From sequence record NC_103192.1: DNA of 64,000 nucleotides, one strand, 5' to 3'. Position numbers and translations under genes: made by a program. Numbering within the stretch: the first letter of the stretch is position 1; each line of letters opens with the position of its first letter. The notes beneath the pieces were generated by a model. The model was not told the DNA's origin and made no database searches. It worked only from the letters and a program-made list of their open reading frames with translations. This DNA is from a phage. Shown here one piece after another: positions 7,836 to 64,000 of this stretch.

Positions 7836-8207
7836 ATGGAATTTATTATTTTGGCTGTATTAGTTGCCTTGTTTAACGCCTGGATCGCTGGCAAGATGGG
7901 TAGATCCGCCTTTTTATGGTTTATTATATCTATTTTCCTGGGGGTGGTTGCAACTATTGTATTAGTTATCCTTGCAATTGTTGACAAGGGCGATAATAGA
8001 AAGGGTAAAGTATTTTCAGACCTGTACGACGCTCAAACGTTTGTCAACGCATATTATAGTGATCTTCCAGTCTCCCTACGCTGCAGCCTGGCACAACAAG
8101 TTTTCGATGAGGCTAAAACCAGAGATCAAGCCCATGAGATATGTTTAACTGAGGCGGATCGCCTATTTGAGAGGAATAGAAAATATGTGGGCCAACCGTT
8201 TAAATAA
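7836..8207 (+). CDS. Hypothetical membrane protein
   Basis: Two predicted TM segments (IILAVLVALFNAWIA; FLWFIISIFLGVVATIVLVILAIV). Confidence 0.45.
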   Translation: MEFIILAVLVALFNAWIAGKMGRSAFLWFIISIFLGVVATIVLVILAIVDKGDNRKGKVFSDLYDAQTFVNAYYSDLPVSLRCSLAQQVFDEAKTRDQAHEICLTEADRLFERNRKYVGQPFK

Positions 8208-8430
8208 TGCCACGTTAATTAATCCCTTTAGTGAAGATTTGAAGCCAGCCGCCTGGCGTGATGGATTCAATACCGAACGCTTTATTTTCAGGCCTGATCT
8301 TGAGGAATTTTATAACAATGGATCGAACAACGACAGAGATAATTTTTCTTGTGATGTGCGTAGTGATGGTACTCCTGGGGGCCATTGTAAACCACGTCAC
8401 TACTACCAGGAGGAAAGGGGGAGACGATGA
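8185..8430 (+). CDS. Hypothetical early protein
   Basis: ORF overlapping upstream gene; start is a guess. Confidence 0.35.
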   Translation: MWANRLNNATLINPFSEDLKPAAWRDGFNTERFIFRPDLEEFYNNGSNNDRDNFSCDVRSDGTPGGHCKPRHYYQEERGRR

Positions 8431-8546
8431 CACCCAAGGATAAGCCACGCACCGATAAGGCGCGCCGTGTTATGGTGTGGCTGGAGATCATCGCCCTTGA
8501 AATATTGTTAGGCGTAGGGATGTACTTTATCGCTATAAGTAACTAA
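8427..8546 (+). CDS. Small membrane peptide (39 aa)
   Basis: ATGA overlap with upstream gene; SD ggaggaaaggggg; C-terminal TM; terminator directly downstream. Confidence 0.4.
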   Translation: MTPKDKPRTDKARRVMVWLEIIALEILLGVGMYFIAISN

Positions 8547-8547
8547 G

Positions 8548-8580
8548 AACGGCCCCCGATCATGGGGCTTATCTTTTTAA
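8548..8580 (+). terminator. Rho-independent terminator
   Basis: ggcccccgatcatggggc hairpin followed by a T-run. Confidence 0.55.
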
Positions 8581-8685
8581 AAAATTTTTCTTCTAGGGTG
8601 TTGCAATCCGGTCCGAGATGTGGATAATGACAATCAACGGGGAGCCAATCCCCACCAACACAAAAAACCAGAAAGGAGAAACAAA

Positions 8686-8886
8686 ATGAGCAACAATATC
8701 CGCGTTATTAACTTCAAAAAAGAAGAAAAAATTGCCGTGCTGATTGACGGTCAAGAAATCTTCAAGGGCGATTATGAAGATCATCAAACGGCGATTAGTA
8801 TCACTCGCGTGATCGGTTACCATAATTTCTACCCCCAAGGCGCTGAGGCAGCAGTTAAACGAATCAAAGAGATTGTAGGCCTGTAA
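8686..8886 (+). CDS. Hypothetical early protein
   Basis: SD aaaggag; leader hairpin ggggagccaatcccc plus CA-rich linker. Confidence 0.5.
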   Translation: MSNNIRVINFKKEEKIAVLIDGQEIFKGDYEDHQTAISITRVIGYHNFYPQGAEAAVKRIKEIVGL

Positions 8887-8935
8887 AATTTATTTTTAGA
8901 TGGCCTTGACATCAGGGCCATCAATAAAGTAAATT
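8887..8935 (+). promoter_or_regulatory. Repeated hairpin-promoter element (copy 3)
   Basis: Same 48-nt element as at 4521 and 5151, with one C-to-T change in the loop. Confidence 0.55.
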
Positions 8936-8977
8936 TAAACCCTGTTAAAATAATCAGTGCAAAAAGGAGTAATGATC

Positions 8978-51906: not shown

Positions 51907-53190
51907 TCATTCCAGCACCTCCCAAGTGTCTGGGTTAACATTTCGAACGCAGATACCGACAGGGAATTGGTAGTTGTTGTCTTCTGTCCTTGCTTGGTAT
52001 TTGAAGGTGATAAACTTGCCGATCATTTCCTGCATCCTGTCATAGCTACGCTCCTCGTGAGTGCCTTTCATCTTCATTTTAACAACAACACCTTCCTTGT
52101 CAACACAGATAAGAACACCTTCATCATTCTTATCTTTCTCAACGTCAATAACTTTCACCTCTGCGTCGTTGAACTTTTTCCATTTCAATGCTTCAGATGT
52201 TCGCTGACCATACTCATATTTACCACAGAAATTACGCATGATAGTACCTTCATATCCTTCGGACATGAATATACCAACAGATTCTTCGCAATGATCAACT
52301 GTGTACGCAAGCTCTGCGTCAACAACCTTGATATGGTCAAGCATCAGAGTGGTAACGGTATCCTCTGCATCCATAAGATCCTTGCAGCGTCCAGACTCTG
52401 TTTCTGGATCCCACCACACCTTGTCGCTAGGAATATCAAAAATGTGATACTCCAGATCGTAGCTACAGTACCCACCATAACGCAAATCATCACGAACAGG
52501 CTCAACATCGACAGGAATATCTACCTTGTTGAAGTTTTTGTATGTTGATAAGCCTGCCTTAATTGCGGCATGACGGCGTTTTTTATCTGCCTCATAGTCT
52601 TTATCGATCTCGGCCTGAATCTCTTCCTGTGTGCGCCACCGTTTAGCAAGAGACACTATTTTCTGCAAAGGAAGACCATGAATGTATAGTTCCCCATCAA
52701 GTTGTTTAATCCCAGTGGTGAAGTGGAAAGAACGAAGTTGCTCCAGAAGCTTTCCTTGAATAGGGTAGGACTTATTACCACGGGAAATAAATTTAGGCTC
52801 ACCATTCTGGAAAACAACAAGTAGACGAAGGCCATCTAACTTACGCAAGATCCAGCAAGGTAATTTAAGTGCCTTGCCACGCTTCAGGTAGTCATGCACC
52901 AACATGGGTAAAAGGTCAACACCCTGCTCGCAATCTTCCATATTTTCAACATACCCCAGACGGACTTGTTTTTCCCACTTACTGATCGCTTCCAGCTCAG
53001 CCTGTTGCTCAGCTGTAGTTTCATTGGCACGACCCACGTTCTTAGGTGTGCAGATCGTCTCTTTGTATTGCAGTTTACCATCAAGCTTGCCAAACTCTAC
53101 GATAACCTTATCACCATCCGTGAATACTTTCCACTGTTGGTAGCTGCCATCTTTGTTCAGTGCGTACAGTGTTGTTTTGATCTGATGCAT
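51907..53190 (-). CDS. ATP-dependent polynucleotide ligase (DNA ligase-like)
   Basis: Motif I RKLDGLR (KxDGxR), motif IV EGTIMR, motif V LKWKKF. Confidence 0.6.
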   Translation of the reverse strand: MHQIKTTLYALNKDGSYQQWKVFTDGDKVIVEFGKLDGKLQYKETICTPKNVGRANETTAEQQAELEAISKWEKQVRLGYVENMEDCEQGVDLLPMLVHDYLKRGKALKLPCWILRKLDGLRLLVVFQNGEPKFISRGNKSYPIQGKLLEQLRSFHFTTGIKQLDGELYIHGLPLQKIVSLAKRWRTQEEIQAEIDKDYEADKKRRHAAIKAGLSTYKNFNKVDIPVDVEPVRDDLRYGGYCSYDLEYHIFDIPSDKVWWDPETESGRCKDLMDAEDTVTTLMLDHIKVVDAELAYTVDHCEESVGIFMSEGYEGTIMRNFCGKYEYGQRTSEALKWKKFNDAEVKVIDVEKDKNDEGVLICVDKEGVVVKMKMKGTHEERSYDRMQEMIGKFITFKYQARTEDNNYQFPVGICVRNVNPDTWEVLE

Positions 53191-54545: not shown

Positions 54546-55307
54546 TTACAGTTCCATAAAGTTTTCTACGATGTCAATGAATGTTTTATCAGAGAAAGCG
54601 TCAACCGCCCCGTTAAACCAAACTGGGATGCCGCGATCCTCATACTGGTAAATGTCACTACGTGAAATGCCATTCTCCCCTAAATGCTGTGAGTCGTATT
54701 TGTTAACGATCAGTAGTTTAGTCCCCTTACTACAGGCAGGAAACAGCTCCCAGTTAAAATTGATAACTGTGTTGGAGCACCCTACAAGAATAACCATATC
54801 ATTGCTAGTCAGAGAAGTCAACAGGTCATACATGTCTGTATACTTTGGAGCTACTTCTCCGAAGAACACTACATTAGGCTTGACCCAAGTATACTTGCTT
54901 GCATCTACCTCAGAGTATCCAATGTCTTTAATGACGTCACTCCCCTCATCATCCTCATAGACTATTTCTGGCAAATATCCGTGGACATGTAAAATATCTT
55001 CATGTTTTACACCAGCACGCTCCAGCAAATCATCTACATTGGTGGTCAGGTTGATCACACGACCAGACCAGCGGGAATACCACTCAGCGATCCGAAGATG
55101 CGCAAGGTTAGGATCAACACTGCCCAGAGCTACACGTCGTGCATTGTAAAAGTCATGCACCTTATAGTAGTTCTTGGCAAAGGTGTGGATGTTACACACC
55201 TCATCGATGCTGAAATTCTCCCACATTGCAGTGCCACCAGACCGGAAAGTGGGGATACCAGATTCAGCGCTCAAACCAGCACCGGAGATAATGATCAGTC
55301 GTCGCAT
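54546..55307 (-). CDS. Sir2-family NAD-dependent deacylase/ADP-ribosyltransferase
   Basis: GAGLSAESGIPTFRSGG...MWENF, TTNVDDLLERAG, VHGYL catalytic His; no clear Zn-ribbon cysteines. Confidence 0.75.
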   Translation of the reverse strand: MRRLIIISGAGLSAESGIPTFRSGGTAMWENFSIDEVCNIHTFAKNYYKVHDFYNARRVALGSVDPNLAHLRIAEWYSRWSGRVINLTTNVDDLLERAGVKHEDILHVHGYLPEIVYEDDEGSDVIKDIGYSEVDASKYTWVKPNVVFFGEVAPKYTDMYDLLTSLTSNDMVILVGCSNTVINFNWELFPACSKGTKLLIVNKYDSQHLGENGISRSDIYQYEDRGIPVWFNGAVDAFSDKTFIDIVENFMEL

Positions 55308-55315
55308 AAGTGTCC

Positions 55316-55666
55316 TCAGTAGATGTTTTGTTTAATCTCTATTCCAAACTTTTTAAACGAGTCAGCTGCAAGCATGAATTTACGAGCAGCTGATGGGTTA
55401 GAAGTATGCACGAAAATCTTCACGTTGTCAACTACAGGAGGCTTACCAAATACAAATTTTTCCTCTAGGAGGCAGAAGCAATCGTATCCTTCAAGAATTT
55501 CTCCCAAGTCGCTGTCAAAATGCCACTCAGAAACGCGCCTGTAGAGCTTTCCCTTATCGTTAATAAAATCCATAAACTCAGAAGAATTCTTTAGCCACAG
55601 AGCGTCTGGGAGTCCATAATCTGACGGATCTCTAAAATCATCAAGCCACACAATCCACTTCTTCAT
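55316..55666 (-). CDS. Hypothetical protein
   Basis: 4-nt overlap with upstream ligase gene. Confidence 0.4.
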   Translation of the reverse strand: MKKWIVWLDDFRDPSDYGLPDALWLKNSSEFMDFINDKGKLYRRVSEWHFDSDLGEILEGYDCFCLLEEKFVFGKPPVVDNVKIFVHTSNPSAARKFMLAADSFKKFGIEIKQNIY

Positions 55667-56598
55667 TGCATATAGTCCTCGTTGTGGAAATAGTAGTCCA
55701 GTATCTCACGACGCTCCTGCTCTAATAAGCAATTCCACACATCTTCTGTATAGTTGCTACGAATAAATTTTACCATACCGTAAAACTCTTCGTCAACACG
55801 TTTAAAGATATCATCATCCCAAATCTTCCAAGCTTTACCCCTCATTACGGCCTTCCGTGCCAAATAGTATGGAGACTTGATCTTCAGCTGCAGATCATAA
55901 GGGTAGTAAGGCTTACGAATCATATACCCTTCACCTCTTGTTTCTGCAGCTAATTCTTTTGCATAGCTGAACGGAATTTCACGCACAGTGTGAGGACGTT
56001 TTGCACCAAGGTATTTGGCAATCCCATCTAAAGCTGCTTCTGGTAGCATTATTCCAGAATCATTATATCTGCAACCTATCAAATATGCGCCATGATCTTC
56101 CTGAACAATATGCGGATCTGAAGGGTGACAAATTTCAAACATGAATGTCATGTTTTCATGGCCCATAACCTTCTTGATAAGATCTAAATTACCACATTGC
56201 TCCTGGATGGTTTCCTTTGCAAGGTTACAATATGGAGAATCAAGAGACCCGGTTGTTGAAAACAATAGTTCACCTTTATGAGATGATACCACACCAAGGA
56301 ATCCGTTCTTTTTCTCTACCACCGTCACAAGTTTATTGTCAGGCAGGTTGGTGGAATTTTCTCCCAAGTTAAACACTTTTGTGAAGGGCCATGCCACAAC
56401 ATTTCCTTCATTACCGACAACAATGCCTCGGCACTCCAGCAAACGAGGAGACAAATGCCATAAATTGTTGTAGAATACTTTTCTGGCATATTTATAGATC
56501 TTTAACCCAAGATCCGGGTAATATCTGCTGGTTACAAGACCTTTGTCAACTAGGTCGTCTGCATTAAAATACTTCATCATACATTCCTCATTTGTCAT
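55663..56598 (-). CDS. RNA ligase-like nucleotidyltransferase
   Basis: Motif I VVEKKNGFLG, motif IV EGYMIRK, motif V LKIKSPYYL; context with kinase and phosphoesterase. Confidence 0.5.
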   Translation of the reverse strand: MTNEECMMKYFNADDLVDKGLVTSRYYPDLGLKIYKYARKVFYNNLWHLSPRLLECRGIVVGNEGNVVAWPFTKVFNLGENSTNLPDNKLVTVVEKKNGFLGVVSSHKGELLFSTTGSLDSPYCNLAKETIQEQCGNLDLIKKVMGHENMTFMFEICHPSDPHIVQEDHGAYLIGCRYNDSGIMLPEAALDGIAKYLGAKRPHTVREIPFSYAKELAAETRGEGYMIRKPYYPYDLQLKIKSPYYLARKAVMRGKAWKIWDDDIFKRVDEEFYGMVKFIRSNYTEDVWNCLLEQERREILDYYFHNEDYMQ

Positions 56599-56698
56599 TT
56601 TGTCCCTTTATTCTGCCACACAAATAACCCAGTGTCAACACTTGAAATTAACAAAACCGTTAGGTATACTATCATTCAAATTAAAACGGAGGGTTACT
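56599..56698. promoter_or_regulatory. Divergent promoter region between the minus-strand and plus-strand blocks
   Basis: Plus: TTGAAA, 17 nt, TATACT ahead of 56699; minus: TTGACA-containing sequence ahead of 56598. Confidence 0.5.
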
Positions 56699-57109
56699 AT
56701 GTCTAAAATGCTATATATCGTGCGTGGTCTACCAGGGTCTGGCAAATCAACACTGGCAAATGCGCTATCTTTAGAAGGTCTGTACCCACATTTTGAGAAC
56801 GACATGTTCTGGTACGACGATGACGGCAATTACAACTGGGATGCAAGTAAAGTAACACTTGCAGCAAAATGGTGCAAAGATAACGTAGAAGATATGATGC
56901 GTATGGGATACGACCGTATCGTGGTAAGTAATACGTTTACAAAAGAAAAATATGTTCAAGAATATATTGACATGGCGATCAGTCATGGATATAGTTATAC
57001 CGTGATCGTGGTTGAAAACCGCCATGGTAATAAAAGCATTCATGATGTTCCAGACAGGGTTGTGGATCGTATGGAACGCCAGCTTAAAAACTGCATTAAA
57101 CTTAAATGA
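56699..57109 (+). CDS. Polynucleotide kinase-like P-loop kinase
   Basis: Walker A GLPGSGKST at residues 10-18; SD ggaggg; 137 aa. Confidence 0.6.
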   Translation: MSKMLYIVRGLPGSGKSTLANALSLEGLYPHFENDMFWYDDDGNYNWDASKVTLAAKWCKDNVEDMMRMGYDRIVVSNTFTKEKYVQEYIDMAISHGYSYTVIVVENRHGNKSIHDVPDRVVDRMERQLKNCIKLK

Positions 57110-57116
57110 GGGATGT

Positions 57117-57671
57117 ATGAAATACTTTGTAACAAGCGACACACACTTTCTCCACCAGCGGGTAATGGAGTTCGACTCATGTCAAAAACACAGATCTCAG
57201 TATGATCACAATCTTGACAGTATGAATGCGGGAATCATCACCAAGTGGAACTCTGTTGTGTCACCTGCAGACACTGTGTTTCACTTGGGGGATATTGCGT
57301 GCACTAATGATAAGAATATCAACAAATTGCTTCCAGATGTTCTAAATATGTTGAACGGACATATTATTCTTGTTCGTGGTAACCATGACACAAGGACGAC
57401 TGTCAGAATTATGAAAGAGTTCGGTCATGAGGTTGTGGATTATTACGAGCTTCGCCACAACAAGAATTTGATCTGTATGAGCCATTACCAGTTTGCAACG
57501 TGGAACAGAAAGCATCACGGATCAGTCCAACTGTTCGGTCATGCTCACGGAACCACACAACAGTTGTTTGGCAGGCAGTTTGATGTCGGTTGGGATGTGT
57601 GGGGGAGACTCTTACCATTAGAAGAGGCATACCGTGTTGCAATGAGTTTTGCTATTGACAGCGGGGAGTAA
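57117..57671 (+). CDS. Calcineurin-like metallophosphoesterase
   Basis: SDTHF, GDIAC.ND, GNHD motifs in canonical order. Confidence 0.65.
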   Translation: MKYFVTSDTHFLHQRVMEFDSCQKHRSQYDHNLDSMNAGIITKWNSVVSPADTVFHLGDIACTNDKNINKLLPDVLNMLNGHIILVRGNHDTRTTVRIMKEFGHEVVDYYELRHNKNLICMSHYQFATWNRKHHGSVQLFGHAHGTTQQLFGRQFDVGWDVWGRLLPLEEAYRVAMSFAIDSGE

Positions 57672-57718
57672 TCTCCGCTATTTTAAAGAAAATTACCACA
57701 CAAGGAGAATCAGGAGAT

Positions 57719-58069
57719 ATGAAAGATGGGGATAAACTGCCATATCTTAAAGTCCCCCTTGGTATACTGTCTATGTCAAAAGTTTTGAATGACACAACTG
57801 GAGAGGTTGTTGTTCTTGACTTGTATGATAAGATCGTATACTGCTACCTGCACAACTGGTATAAGCTTGGAGGAAATTCACGCTTCACACCCAGCACAAG
57901 GAAAATTGCAGCAGATATTGGGATAAAGAAAACAAAAGCAGCAGCGTGCGTTAAAACTTTAGAATGTGCAGGGGTGGTTGAAACATCCACACAAGGGAGA
58001 GGCAAGAGATGCACATTTTCCAAAGTTTTGCCACCAGAAGAAGTTATTCGAATGTCAACAACTGGTTAG
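57719..58069 (+). CDS. Putative HTH DNA-binding protein (candidate initiator/regulator)
   Basis: RKIAADIGIKKTKAAACVKTLECAGVVE helix-turn-helix-like segment; iteron array immediately downstream. Confidence 0.4.
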   Translation: MKDGDKLPYLKVPLGILSMSKVLNDTTGEVVVLDLYDKIVYCYLHNWYKLGGNSRFTPSTRKIAADIGIKKTKAAACVKTLECAGVVETSTQGRGKRCTFSKVLPPEEVIRMSTTG

Positions 58070-58144
58070 ACCAGTAAAAACTTAAACATCTGTACTATAA
58101 GGATTTGTATGTTTTATGTTCGCTCTGGAACAGAGGTTAGTAAC

Positions 58145-58225
58145 TGTCCGTGATACGGACACTACTGTCCGTCACGCGGACACATCTGTCCGTAATACGG
58201 ACACTAACTGTCCGTGATACGGACA
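58145..58225. repeat. Four 17-bp palindromic iterons (TGTCCGTGATACGGACA and variants) at 21-22 bp spacing
   Basis: Copies at 58145, 58166, 58187, 58209. Confidence 0.85.
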
Positions 58226-60600: not shown

Positions 60601-60675
60601 GCCACCCAGTGCCCTGTTAGCTTAGTGGATAAAGCAGCGGCCTTCTAAGCCGTTGACACTGGTTCGAGTCCAGTA
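60601..60675 (+). tRNA. tRNA-Arg (anticodon TCT)
   Basis: Hand-folded cloverleaf: acceptor GCCCTGT/ACGGGGT, anticodon loop CTTCTAA, T-loop TTCGAGT, CCA encoded. Confidence 0.7.
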
Positions 60676-60815
60676 CGGGGTGCCAAGTTCTTTTTAATGT
60701 AGCTTACTTTAGCAGAGTAAATCTTCGGCAAGTGGCGGTAACCACTTTACCGATACCTCATAGTTAGTGGTGAGAACACTAGCTATTTTAAAAAGAATTT
60801 AAATATTAGTATTTA

Positions 60816-60903
60816 GGTGAGTTAATTCCGTAGGGGTAGCGGGGCAGACTGTAAATCTGTTATCATTGCGATTCGGGTGGTTCGACTCCATCACTCACCA
60901 CCA
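60816..60903 (+). tRNA. tRNA-Tyr (anticodon GTA), long variable arm
   Basis: Acceptor GGTGAGT/ACTCACC, anticodon arm CAGACTGTAAATCTG as in E. coli tRNA-Tyr, T-loop TTCGACT, CCA. Confidence 0.7.
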
Positions 60904-61017
60904 AATTTATATTTTTAAATGCATAAATCATACAGATAATGGCATTGATATTTATCGTCGTTTATACTAGTCACTAACTGCTCGAAAATCAGTGTCATTA
61001 TCAGTATTGTTTATAAA

Positions 61018-61108
61018 AGAGGGTAGGGAGCAATGGTGCTCAAGCGGTCTTGAAAACCGTCCCGTTGAGGATGACTCGATGATGGTTCGATTCCATTATC
61101 CTCTGCCA
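61018..61108 (+). tRNA. tRNA-Ser (anticodon TGA), long variable arm
   Basis: Acceptor AGAGGGT/ATCCTCT, anticodon arm CGGTCTTGAAAACCG, T-loop TTCGATT, CCA. Confidence 0.7.
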
Positions 61109-61206
61109 TATTGTTGACTATGTAATTAAGCGAAAGCCGGAAGCAGAACCGGATTATCAAATGTTACAGTCGTCATCGCCGACTAGCAACATGGTCAACA
61201 TACTGA

Positions 61207-61305
61207 GCTAGGTAAGCCCTTTGGCAAGGGCGAGGATTTTTAATCCTGAAAATAGACGAGGTAGTCGTTGAATACATAGGTGGTTCGATTCCATCACCTA
61301 GCACC
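61207..61305 (+). tRNA. Atypical tRNA-like element (type II shape, irregular anticodon arm)
   Basis: Acceptor GCTAGGT/ACCTAGC, D-arm GCCC/GGGC, T-loop TTCGATT, long variable arm; anticodon region is either a 5-nt loop or a 4-bp stem with TTTTTAA loop; no CCA. Confidence 0.35.
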
Positions 61306-61310
61306 TTTTT

Positions 61311-61386
61311 GCTGATGTAGCACAATTGGTAGTGCAATTGATTTGTAATCAATAGGTTGCAGGTTCAAGTCCTGCCATCAGCACCA
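61311..61386 (+). tRNA. tRNA-Thr (anticodon TGT)
   Basis: Acceptor GCTGATG/CATCAGC, anticodon loop TTTGTAA, T-loop TTCAAGT, CCA. Confidence 0.75.
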
Positions 61387-61387
61387 T

Positions 61388-61462
61388 GGCCCTGTAGCTG
61401 GAAGGTTCAAGCAAGCGACTCATAATCGCCAGACGGTGGTTCAATTCCACCCAGGGCCACCA
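61388..61462 (+). tRNA. tRNA-Met or Ile2 (anticodon CAT)
   Basis: Acceptor GGCCCTG/CAGGGCC, anticodon loop CTCATAA, T-loop TTCAATT, CCA. Confidence 0.75.
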
Positions 61463-61473
61463 AATAATAAATA

Positions 61474-61550
61474 CTCCGCGTAGCTCAGCTTGGTAGAGTG
61501 CCTGATTTGGGATCAGGAGGTCGAGTGTTCGAATCACTCCGTGGAGACCA
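61474..61550 (+). tRNA. tRNA-Pro (anticodon TGG)
   Basis: Acceptor CTCCGCG/CGTGGAG, anticodon loop TTTGGGA, T-loop TTCGAAT, CCA. Confidence 0.75.
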
Positions 61551-62370: not shown

Positions 62371-62654
62371 GAGTTGCTACACTATTTATTGTGTGCTTGT
62401 TATTATGTGGGTGTGCAACCAGTGTTGAGAAAGAATACAAGATTGACCCTCCAGATGTAGGAAGGTTGATTGTTAAACCCCCAGAAGGTGCTATGAAACC
62501 ACCTGCTAAAGCTATGCCTTTGAAGAAAGGTGCGCCAGATGCAGTAAATTCTGGCATTATGAGGGATAATAATCTGTCTTGTAGCAATGATAGAGCTAAA
62601 TTGATCATTTTGCAAGACTATATTAGAACACTTTTTCCAAAGGAGAGAGGTTAA
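62367..62654 (+). CDS. o-spanin-like lipoprotein (Rz1-like)
   Basis: Signal with lipobox-like LLCGCAT; proline-rich mature part. Confidence 0.55.
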   Translation: MRVATLFIVCLLLCGCATSVEKEYKIDPPDVGRLIVKPPEGAMKPPAKAMPLKKGAPDAVNSGIMRDNNLSCSNDRAKLIILQDYIRTLFPKERG

Positions 62655-63079
62655 TGTCTAAGATTTACGGACCGTGTTCTGAAAAGCAGAAGATGATCCT
62701 CGAAAACGATGCAGATATTTTGGTAATCGGCGGTGCCGCAGGGTCTGGCAAGTCGTTCCTCTTGCAGTTGATGCCACTTAAAATTATTGATGACCCCCAC
62801 AGCTCTGTGGTTATGTTCCGAAGAACAACCCCACAGTTGGAAGGTGAGGGTGGGCTATGGCCTAAAGCAGTAGCTATTTATAGCGATCTGCCTGAAAACA
62901 TTAAGCCAAAGTTCAGAGAGAAGGATCATAAGTTCATTTTCCCACGGTTTGATCCGGGCACTGGCAAGTGGGATAGAAGCAAAAAGGGAGCTGTTGTAAA
63001 ATACTGCCACATGGAGTATGTACAAGATAAGCTTAACCATCAAGGGCTTGAGTACACCATGGTTTGCTTTGATGAGGGT
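62654..63079 (+). CDS. terL: Terminase large subunit, exon 1 (ATPase N-terminal part)
   Basis: Walker A GGAAGSGKS, Walker B MVCFDEG; reading frame then hits a stop where the intron begins. Confidence 0.7.
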
Positions 63080-63398
63080 TAATTTGTAGCTCTCGTAAAA
63101 CCTCCCTAATTGCGGGGAAATCTTTATTATTGACACCACCAACCTGTCATGGTAACATGACAGAGGCTTCGAAGAGAGATCGAAGGTATGGTAACAGTGT
63201 GTTAATTTAGATAATCCGCAGCGAAGCATCCGAAAGGATGAACGTTCAACGACTAGTCGAAAGACGTAGAATCAAGCGATTCGAAACGGGAGGATAAGCG
63301 GTTGTTGTCGCTTATAAGATATAGTCTGGTCTGCATGGAGACATGCAGCTGCCTGAAAATGGCGGGGCAAGACTAGCGACCTTGCCCGAACATAAACG
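63080..63398 (+). mobile_element. Group I intron (ORF-less) in terminase large subunit gene
   Basis: GTTCAACGACTAGTC and AAGATATAGTC core elements (P7-like), P9-like hairpin; exon 1 ends on U of ggt; frame resumes TQFEWEQIDYLMSRL. Confidence 0.6.
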
Positions 63399-63716
63399 AC
63401 GCAATTCGAATGGGAGCAGATAGACTACCTAATGTCTCGTCTGCGATCTCAGTCAAAGTATCCATCAAGAATGGTTATCAGCTGTAACCCCGACTCAGAA
63501 CACATGCTTGCCAAACTGATTAGGTGGTGGTTGGACGATGAAGGGTATCCAGATCCGGAGAAATGTGGTAAGAAAAGATATTTTATCCGACGCGACGGTG
63601 AATTTATCTGGGGAGACTCTAAGGAAGAGTTAATAGAGAAATACACCACGGTTAACGGACTAGGTGTGGAGATCAAGCCAAGACCGTTGTCATTCTCGTT
63701 CATAGGCGCAACCATT
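63399..63716 (+). CDS. terL: Terminase large subunit, exon 2
   Basis: Continues the ATPase domain (RMVISCNPD region) in frame after the intron; ends at a stop followed by a second intron. Confidence 0.6.
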
Positions 63717-64000
63717 AAATGATAGTGGCTTCGTGCAGAAATGCACGTCGAATAACTTCGTTAATTGCTGGAAAATCCTTTATGAAAGGACAATCAGCAG
63801 CCAAGCCTGAATATTCAGGAAGGTTCAACGACTATCCTGAGAGGGAGTAGGGCGCAAGCTTATGGCGCTCGAAAAGCGAAGCACCCTGAGATGGGTGGTG
63901 ATATAGTCTACTCTGCATGGTAACATGCAGCGGCACGTAATGGTGCGGAGGGTGGTGTTGCGACCACCCTTGAATATAAGGATTCGATAATCCTGTCTGC
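63717..64000 (+). mobile_element. Second group I intron in terminase gene (3' end beyond window)
   Basis: GTTCAACGACTA and GATATAGTC elements and a P9 hairpin closely resembling intron 1 and the nrdD intron. Confidence 0.55.

Follow-up and report, generated by a model that had tools for sequence, protein, structure and literature searches.

To our knowledge, RNA repair encoded by a phage has been demonstrated experimentally almost only for T4, whose Pnkp protein phosphorylates 5' ends and heals 3' ends by means of a HAD/DxDxT phosphatase fused to the kinase, after which the ATP-dependent ligase Rnl1 (RnlA) seals them. T4 repairs tRNA-Lys cut by PrrC, and its repair genes are needed conditionally, on prr+ hosts only (PMC11494293). 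In Clostridium thermocellum, the single polypeptide CthPnkp carries a kinase at its N terminus, a dinuclear metallophosphoesterase in the middle and an adenylyltransferase at its C terminus, and its phosphoesterase removes 2'-PO4, 3'-PO4 and 2',3'-cyclic phosphates, combining the phosphodiesterase and phosphomonoesterase steps in one enzyme (PMC2190708). The Pnkp1-Rnl-Hen1 system of Capnocytophaga gingivalis separates the ligase from the healing enzyme, needs Hen1 and assembles as a heterohexamer (PMC4411300). Fungal and plant Trl1 also heals and seals 2',3'-cyclic phosphate/5'-OH ends, using a 2H cyclic phosphodiesterase and requiring a 2'-PO4, with Tpt1 acting afterwards. For phages, Iyer et al. 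(2021, PMC7824862) reported that calcineurin-like phosphatases occasionally replace HAD phosphatases in RNA repair, and defined cREC as a family of receiver-like proteins, predicted to process cyclic phosphates, that adjoin RNA ligases and enzymes using nicotinamide adenine dinucleotide (NAD+). Here we examined a 64,000-nucleotide stretch of phage DNA (sequence record NC_103192.1; hereafter the window), in which genes for an Rnl1-type ATP-dependent RNA ligase, a stand-alone P-loop kinase and a binuclear metallophosphoesterase (MPE) lie side by side. We consider it likely, with a probability of roughly 0.7, that these genes form a phage RNA end-healing and sealing system.

The ligase gene occupies 55663..56598 on the minus strand (311 amino acids, aa) and diverges from the genes for the kinase (56699..57109, plus strand, 136 aa) and the MPE (57117..57671, plus strand, 184 aa) over a 100-bp intergenic spacer (56599..56698), the arrangement that an initial annotation, made from the sequence by itself, had described. 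Open reading frames (ORFs), Pfam matches and invariant alignment columns all bear out three genes with intact catalytic motifs at these positions, and because of the E-values and the family-wide invariance of the motifs given below, the observation is far beyond chance. The kinase probably starts at the ATG at 56699, behind a GGAGGG ribosome-binding site, and not at the TTG at 56543; the MPE probably starts at the ATG at 57117, and some records place the ligase start at M7/M8. In a consensus scan, the spacer held back-to-back sigma-70-like matches, TTGAAA-17-TATACT on the plus strand (56642-56670) and TTGACA-17-CAGAAT with a TG on the minus strand (56638-56610), from which we infer promoter function. 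The source phage is an rV5-like Vequintavirus, since the region 55000-58200 is 96-97% identical in nucleotide sequence to more than 100 rV5-like Escherichia phages (e.g., ECP32, NHEP1 and MaxBurger/Bas54). Eighteen records labeled 'Campylobacter phage' (MG065646, MG065647, MG065658 and others; host C. jejuni) are also ∼96% identical to the sequence, and their stated host looks doubtful. Gene-by-gene annotation is already present in GenBank, where relatives carry the product names 'RNA ligase', 'polynucleotide kinase / ATPase' and 'phosphoesterase', and the cluster was anticipated by comparative-genomic surveys. A literature search for RNA repair specific to Vequintavirus turned up only genome reports and a HIDEN-SEQ preprint.

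The ligase matched Pfam RNA_lig_T4_1 (PF09511) with E = 1.3e-15 and 58.3 bits (gathering cut-off 28.3), and scored 41.8 bits against the NCBIfam equivalog TIGR02308, below its cut-off of 242; on profile scores, the protein appears to be a member of the Rnl1 family, and not an equivalog of T4 RnlA. Its nucleotidyltransferase motifs are K96-K-N98-G99 (I), E155 (III), E223-G224 (IV) and K239-I-K241 (V). The KxNG and KxK motifs were thus correctly named at the outset, and the EGxxxK between them is really EGYMIRK, off by one residue, with EG as its relevant part. R57, K74, F76, K96, G99, E155, E223, G224, K239 and K241 are invariant in a 70-sequence family alignment, and were paired by hhalign (97.7% probability, residues 33-247) with T4 RnlA R54, K75, F77, K99, G102, E159, E227, G228, K240 and K242. 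According to mutagenesis reportedly done in the Shuman laboratory, T4 R54, K75 and F77, which lie upstream of motif I and are specific to Rnl1, are essential. A search of PDB with the single sequence gave nothing meaningful, and a family profile was required; the profile of 70 homologues had T4 Rnl1 as its sole strong sequence match (E = 3e-13), with no sequence-level match to Trl1 in that search. The AlphaFold model (predicted local distance difference test, pLDDT, 91.8) retrieved Trl1 ligase domains, T4 Rnl1 and archaeal Rnl3 as top Foldseek matches (E∼1e-12 to 1e-9), the best being the Trl1 ligase domain 9qw7 (E = 1.2e-12), and DNA ligases ranked far lower (E>1e-5). The initial annotation had considered that the protein might turn out to belong with DNA ligases; instead, the profile leads to T4 Rnl1, and the fold to Rnl1 and Trl1 ahead of DNA ligases. 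Two features set it apart from the T4 enzyme. T116, a nearly invariant Thr in the family, aligns with T4 Lys119 (STTGS versus KSKGS in T4), and motif V, where the profile alignments end (residue ∼247), is followed by ∼64 residues, modeled as four short helices or a small helical bundle, in place of T4's domain of ∼120 aa (∼255-374), which is all-helical and serves RNA binding and tRNA specificity.

The kinase matched Pfam AAA_33 with E = 2.9e-10, carries the P-loop G10-LPGSGKST-18, and belongs to a very large family of stand-alone proteins of ∼130 aa, comprising at least 8000 clusters. G10, G15, K16, D35, N78, T79 and E106-N-R108-H109 are invariant in family alignments. D35 aligns with the general-base Asp of characterized polynucleotide kinases (PNKs; T4 D35, equivalent to D38 in CthPnk), whose catalytic role has been described, as has the Arg three residues beyond it (T4 R38, CthPnk R41), which orients the base, anchors the acceptor and is essential in both enzymes (PMC3902929). 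The window kinase has W38 at that position (N-D35-M-F-W38; family consensus EADMFF), and since an essential Arg has been replaced, its acceptor site must differ. The invariant R9 might stand in for the missing Arg, and T79 (in VSNT) and R108 (in ENRHG) are, by position only, candidates for the acceptor-site Thr (T4 T86, CthPnk T80) and the lid Arg. The kinase profile ranked Pnkp1, T4 Pnk, PSTK and CthPnk above adenylate kinases, with E = 3.5e-5 for the Pnkp1 kinase domain (4xrp). The AlphaFold model (pLDDT 92.5) had CthPnk and T4 Pnk as its top Foldseek matches in PDB (template modeling, TM, scores of 0.72-0.79; E of 3e-6 to 1e-5), and UMP-CMP, shikimate and gluconate kinases reached TM scores of 0.46-0.61. 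The protein was thereby placed with CthPnk and T4 Pnk, and not, as had been weighed initially, among the nucleoside monophosphate kinases, which score lower. Sequence and model together predict a PNK-fold enzyme that would heal 5'-OH ends. A 153-aa protein of Pseudomonas phage psageK4 annotated as 'putative ribose-phosphate pyrophosphokinase' (locus L093:5380-5841) is a PNK-like kinase of the same Pfam family (AAA_33, E = 1e-10), and looks mis-annotated.

The MPE matched Pfam Metallophos with E = 1.3e-5 and 26.1 bits (cut-off 21.5), and Metallophos_2 with E∼1e-5. The motifs D8-T-H10, G58-D59, G88-N89-H90-D, H123 and G141-H142-x-H144 are all invariant among 21 homologues, and the protein is predicted to heal ends that bear a 2',3'-cyclic phosphate or a 3'-phosphate. 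Among solved structures, it is closest to the uncharacterized Aquifex protein aq_1665 (PDB 1XM7, E = 4.8e-11). Motif II of the lambda-phosphatase group has the consensus GDxxDRG; the MPE, with GDIAC in motif II and aq_1665 as its nearest relative, would represent a different subfamily from lambda phosphatase and the CthPnkp phosphoesterase. Its match to the NCBIfam model of ligase-associated PdeM is weak (E = 3e-4, 20 bits versus a cut-off of 150). The initial annotation presented a calcineurin-type enzyme in place of a HAD phosphatase as a departure from both T4 and bacterial Pnkp/Hen1, which is correct for T4 and incorrect for the bacterial system, since the latter itself has a dinuclear metallophosphoesterase (PMC2190708).

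To evaluate whether the three genes travel together, we used 80 IMG/VR loci fetched with the ligase alignment, in which the ligases are 36-49% identical to that of the window, apart from one closer relative (89%). ORFs of these loci were scanned with hidden Markov models (HMMs) of the ligase, kinase and MPE, and by jackhmmer seeded with the cREC and Sir2 proteins of the window. Within 8 kb of the ligase, 74 of the 80 loci have the kinase, 62 have the MPE and 59 have both, and several loci with no kinase or MPE are truncated contigs. The genes occur in at least six orders, including MPE-ligase-kinase (24 loci), kinase-ligase-MPE (19), MPE-ligase-cREC-kinase-Sir2 (6) and ligase-MPE-kinase (3), as well as the divergent order of the window. 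The 737-position profile phrog_8238 ('RNA ligase') matches both the kinase and the ligase, which suggested longer fusions, and 12 loci, on environmental phage contigs (L049-L053, L056, L058-L060 and L062-L064; e.g., L060:7560-8825), do encode a single kinase-ligase fusion of ∼420 aa, with AAA_33 at residues 5-104 and RNA_lig_T4_1 at residues 173-356 by Pfam. No MPE was detected within 8 kb of these fusions. In L056, L060, L063 and L064, the fusion is followed after a few kb by a gene for a permuted tmRNA.

The two healing genes also occur without this ligase. On four contigs of freshwater phages, among them one of 283 kb (L094:5001-6055; L095-L097:5001-6055 and 7856-8977), a kinase 47-50% identical to that of the window overlaps, stop to start, with a 217-aa MPE homologue (HMM E∼1e-47), and the pair lies at most 2.5 kb from an RNA ligase that belongs to a different family (PF09414, with an OB domain, PHA02142, at its N terminus). 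Because the pair is found with a different RNA ligase in unrelated phages, kinase and MPE would be a healing cassette that travels with RNA ligases. Actinophages with Rnl1-like ligases retain a T4-type PNK of 300 aa. Taken together, a linkage that survives rearrangement, the fusions and the re-pairing of the cassette make the strongest computational case that the three proteins would act on a shared RNA substrate. That kinase, end healing and sealing reside on three separate polypeptides, as was proposed initially, is well supported computationally by families, folds, linkage and fusions.

A relative of the source phage has been examined genetically. The HIDEN-SEQ preprint of 2025 used transposon sequencing to map essential genes in Bas54 (MaxBurger), a phage 95.9% identical to the window, and in it the genes for the ligase (bas54_0209, 56 of 60 TA sites hit), kinase (0210, 33/36), MPE (0211, 26/27) and Sir2 (0207, 48/51) are classed as 'non-essential' on E. 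coli K-12, and that for cREC (0208, 16/21) as 'intermediate'. The dispensability of the ligase, kinase, MPE and Sir2 genes fits a conditional accessory function, and recalls T4, whose repair genes are likewise dispensable on ordinary hosts. T4 rnlA, in the same study, tolerated insertions only in its C-terminal domain, and its N-terminal domain was essential. The rV5-type ligase differs from rnlA in being fully dispensable, which argues against a role in tail-fiber assembly or 'tail attachment'. Dispensability in Bas54 neither names a host nuclease nor proves counter-defence.

In the heal-and-seal scheme that we favor, a cut by a ribonuclease would produce one end with a 2',3'-cyclic phosphate (or 3'-phosphate) and another with a 5'-OH. 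The 136-aa PNK-fold kinase would phosphorylate the 5'-OH, the MPE, possibly aided by cREC, would open and remove the 2',3' or 3' phosphate to give a 3'-OH, and the Rnl1-type ligase would then seal the ends through a lysyl-AMP intermediate at K96. The phage would most likely use this scheme to undo cuts that nucleases of host defence systems or toxins make in tRNA or in other RNAs of translation, as an accessory counter-defence needed only on some hosts; a tRNA substrate, and counter-defence against PrrC, RloC or colicins, are plausible.

Compared with the described systems, the order of reactions would be that of T4, with an Rnl1-family ligase and a kinase fold near T4 Pnk. The kinase differs from T4's in being a minimal 136-aa protein with no R38 equivalent, and a separate binuclear metallophosphoesterase takes the place of the fused phosphatase. 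The domain set is shared with CthPnkp (P-loop kinase, dinuclear metallophosphoesterase and ATP-dependent ligase/adenylyltransferase), and CthPnk is the best structural match of the kinase, but three ORFs on two strands, with an Rnl1-type ligase, replace one trifunctional polypeptide. The ligase is separate from the healing enzyme in Pnkp1-Rnl-Hen1 as well, and the Pnkp1 kinase domain is among the best profile matches of the window kinase; in the window, kinase and phosphatase are also separate from each other. No Hen1 was found among features within 6 kb on either side in Bas54, nor among the Pfam matches of the window neighbors, in a scan that covered these surroundings and not the whole genome. 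In a Klebsiella Mydovirus record, a 'methyltransferase' of 127 aa encoded upstream of the ligase was considered as a Hen1, and is too small. Judged by its domains, the cluster is a split, Hen1-less counterpart of the bacterial Pnkp domain set with an Rnl1-type ligase. To Trl1 it is linked by the healing and sealing chemistry that we predict, and by the top Foldseek match of the ligase.

The module described by the initial annotation ended with these three genes, whose identity stands, but two neighbors were overlooked, and it should be extended to cREC and possibly to a Sir2-family gene. The gene for cREC (55316..55666, minus strand, 116 aa) begins within the ligase gene, its start overlapping the ligase stop by 4 nucleotides, and that for the Sir2-family NAD-dependent enzyme (54546..55307, minus strand, 253 aa) begins 8 nucleotides downstream of cREC, so that ligase, cREC and Sir2 are co-directional and, presumably, co-transcribed. 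The cREC protein matched Pfam cREC_REC (PF20274) with E = 3.2e-13 and 50.6 bits (cut-off 27), its acidic-pocket motifs WxDDxR, HFDxDLG and VHTSNP are kept across 12 homologues, and it is a probable fourth component of the module, with a predicted role in cyclic-phosphate processing. Among the 80 related loci, cREC occurs in 10, and in seven it lies between the ligase and kinase genes. A search of 1.8 billion proteins for cREC fusion partners gave eight longer proteins in which Pfam recognized cREC alone, and a ninth, P0345 (626 aa), with only sub-threshold Pfam matches. The Sir2 protein matched Pfam SIR2 (E = 1.3e-26) and an NCBIfam deacylase subfamily (E = 5e-35, below its cut-off), and resembles CobB-type deacylases. 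It has no cysteines at the usual sirtuin zinc-binding CxxC...CxxC site (region HVHGYLPEIVYEDDEGSDV...). The gene follows the kinase in 11 of the 80 loci, and is a possible accessory gene of the module, its link to repair being conjectural. PADLOC placed none of the module proteins in a known defence system, matched no Sir2 model, and gave only weak P-loop matches for the kinase. In two loci, L093 (Pseudomonas phage psageK4, 5906-8864) and L004 (548-2427), the repair trio is flanked by NAD+ salvage and transport genes, for nicotinamide phosphoribosyltransferase, phosphoribosyl pyrophosphate synthetase, a nicotinamide mononucleotide transporter and a NadR-like AAA_28 protein, an echo of the Sir2/cREC link. 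A cREC beside an RNA ligase and Sir2 is also what has been reported for jumbo phages (PMC7824862), but the Vequintavirus, at ∼137 kb, is not a jumbo phage, and our account of the five-gene arrangement, of kinase-ligase fusions and of the kinase-MPE cassette comes from the present analysis and not from that study.

The window also contains a tRNA array (60611..61550, plus strand; ARAGORN, Rfam), whose first tRNA begins 2.9 kb past the MPE stop, in agreement with the distance of about 3 kb noted before. The array comprises Arg-UCU, Tyr-GUA, Ser-UGA, an odd Lys-UUU-like tRNA of 97-99 nucleotides, Thr-UGU, Met/Ile-CAU and Pro-UGG. The Tyr tRNA (60816-60900, plus strand, anticodon GUA) was missed by ARAGORN, scores 39 bits in Rfam and is annotated as tRNA-Tyr in MaxBurger. 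The odd tRNA (61207-61305, plus strand) could not be typed by ARAGORN, and Rfam confirms 61207-61303; its cloverleaf folds with z = -3.7, its anticodon loop is UUUUUAA (Lys-UUU), and it has a variable region of ∼31 nucleotides with a hairpin, which is unusual for tRNA-Lys. A ligase-dependent intron was ruled out, as the anticodon loop is intact and the ∼31 extra nucleotides are at the variable-arm position. As PrrC targets tRNA-Lys(UUU), the odd tRNA could serve as a decoy or as a replacement that resists the nuclease. Among the isoacceptors that known anticodon nucleases attack are Arg-UCU, Tyr-GUA and Lys-UUU, the last represented in the window by the Lys-UUU-like species; codon supplementation is an equally good explanation of the set, because all but Tyr read A-ending codons. 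Across 60 loci scanned, in several lineages, tRNA or tmRNA genes lie at most 8 kb from the ligase in 33, a figure inflated by shared synteny and above a rough, uncomputed estimate of 10-20% for one tRNA cluster placed randomly in a genome of 100-150 kb; the proximity is suggestive only. Suppressor-type tRNAs (CUA, UUA) lie a few kb from the module in L068, L069, L073, L074 and L080, and may relate to stop-codon recoding. Further along the window are two group I introns (63070-63348 and 63706-63930, plus strand; Rfam RF00028, 84 and 93 bits, E = 5.5e-21 and 1.7e-23), which appear to split the terminase large-subunit gene, with exon-like ORFs at 62654-63082 (Walker A GGAAGSGKS) and 63432-63722.

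Several observations weigh against RNA healing and sealing as the role of these genes. The activities of the module proteins are all predicted ones; the kinase lacks the PNK acceptor-site Arg (W38 for T4 R38 and CthPnk R41); and with a Thr at the T4 Lys119 position and no long C-terminal domain, tRNA specificity of the ligase cannot be assumed. The MPE family overall is not dedicated to RNA repair, as its distant homologues occur in unrelated contexts, and among the loci inspected (L007-L009) none had ligase or kinase neighbors beside such a homologue. The linked loci share ancestry, so that fewer independent events lie behind them than the counts suggest. In the one comparison of K-12 with a clinical isolate that the available parts of the Bas54 preprint provide, insertions in the trio were not depleted (log2 fold change of +0.3 to +0.43, q≥0.75). 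Some of these points would suit a set of unrelated neighbors, in which the ligase is a tail-fiber attachment factor, the kinase acts on nucleotides or small molecules, and the MPE is a generic phosphatase or degrades cyclic-nucleotide signals. The GenBank names, among them 'RNA ligase 1 and tail attachment protein' for the ligase, the solitary MPE homologues, the altered kinase acceptor site, and the proposal that calcineurin-like phage phosphodiesterases degrade signaling nucleotides (PMC7824862) all agree with this. Such a reading is nevertheless distinctly improbable, given a linkage that 59-74 of 80 loci retain across at least six different gene orders, the kinase-ligase fusions, a kinase whose nearest folds are polynucleotide kinases, and a Bas54 ligase that is non-essential where the N-terminal domain of T4 rnlA is essential. 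It is unlikely, too, that the enzymes work in the metabolism of phage RNA and not in counter-defence, by joining or circularizing transcripts, maturing tRNAs or tidying ends left by phage endonucleases. The tRNA or tmRNA genes near the module in 33 of 60 loci, the odd tRNA-Lys-like gene, the two group I introns as a sign of active RNA processing in this phage, and the Bas54 data, which show no host dependence so far, speak for it. Yet all the genes but cREC ('intermediate') are dispensable on K-12, a host on which no phage RNA that is essential can therefore depend on them; the additional nucleotides of the odd tRNA belong to its variable arm and not to its anticodon loop, where a ligase-dependent intron would sit; and group I introns splice themselves.

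Healing of DNA ends is a slim prospect by comparison with healing of RNA. Kinase and MPE would in that case repair 3'-phosphate/5'-OH nicks for the ATP-dependent DNA ligase encoded 2.5 kb away (51907-53190), as an accessory to DNA repair or replication. Such a gene also lies within a few kb of the module in L002, L004, L005, L060 and L093, the MPE has its weak match to PdeM (E = 3e-4), and kinases of the T4 and CthPnk types act on DNA as well (PMC2190708); RNA ligases, however, and not the DNA ligase, are what is found as the immediate neighbor, in the fusions and with the coupled genes, the PdeM score of 20 bits is far under the cut-off of 150, and conserved early-gene synteny explains the proximity of the DNA ligase equally well. 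The co-directional ligase, cREC and Sir2 genes, with their 4-nucleotide overlap and 8-nucleotide gap, raise the thought that these three belong to an NAD+ or ADP-ribose pathway, acting on ADP-ribosylated or NAD-capped RNA or on 2'-phosphate junctions, with healing and sealing as only a part. The recurring order MPE-ligase-cREC-kinase-Sir2, the NAD+ genes flanking the module in L093 and L004, and the report of cREC only with NAD+ and cyclic-nucleotide systems (PMC7824862) are consistent with such a pathway, which we hold to be highly improbable: cREC and Sir2 are present in 10 and 11 of 80 loci, against the general occurrence of the kinase, MPE and ligase trio, Sir2 resembles CobB-type deacylases, and accessory genes commonly cluster in phage genomes. 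Very unlikely as well is a version of RNA healing and sealing in which the module would be the phage's analogue of the Trl1/Tpt1 route of eukaryotes, the sirtuin replacing Tpt1; if true, this would be the first RNA-repair chemistry defined for cREC and for a Sir2 from a phage.

What healing and sealing by these proteins would mean for phage biology is that, beside the T4 arrangement, a second configuration (minimal PNK-fold kinase, stand-alone MPE, short Rnl1-type ligase and often cREC) is widespread, occurring in rV5-like, phi92-like, Pseudomonas, Vibrio and environmental myoviruses, and that its kinase and MPE together make up a portable healing unit for different ligase families. The significance is modest unless the link to cREC and Sir2 adds new chemistry. 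If the predicted activities are true, the genes provide a compact set of enzymes with which RNA ends can be repaired, and a handle on which RNA-cleaving defences of E. coli these therapeutic-candidate phages neutralize, a question that could be probed with the existing Bas54 transposon library.

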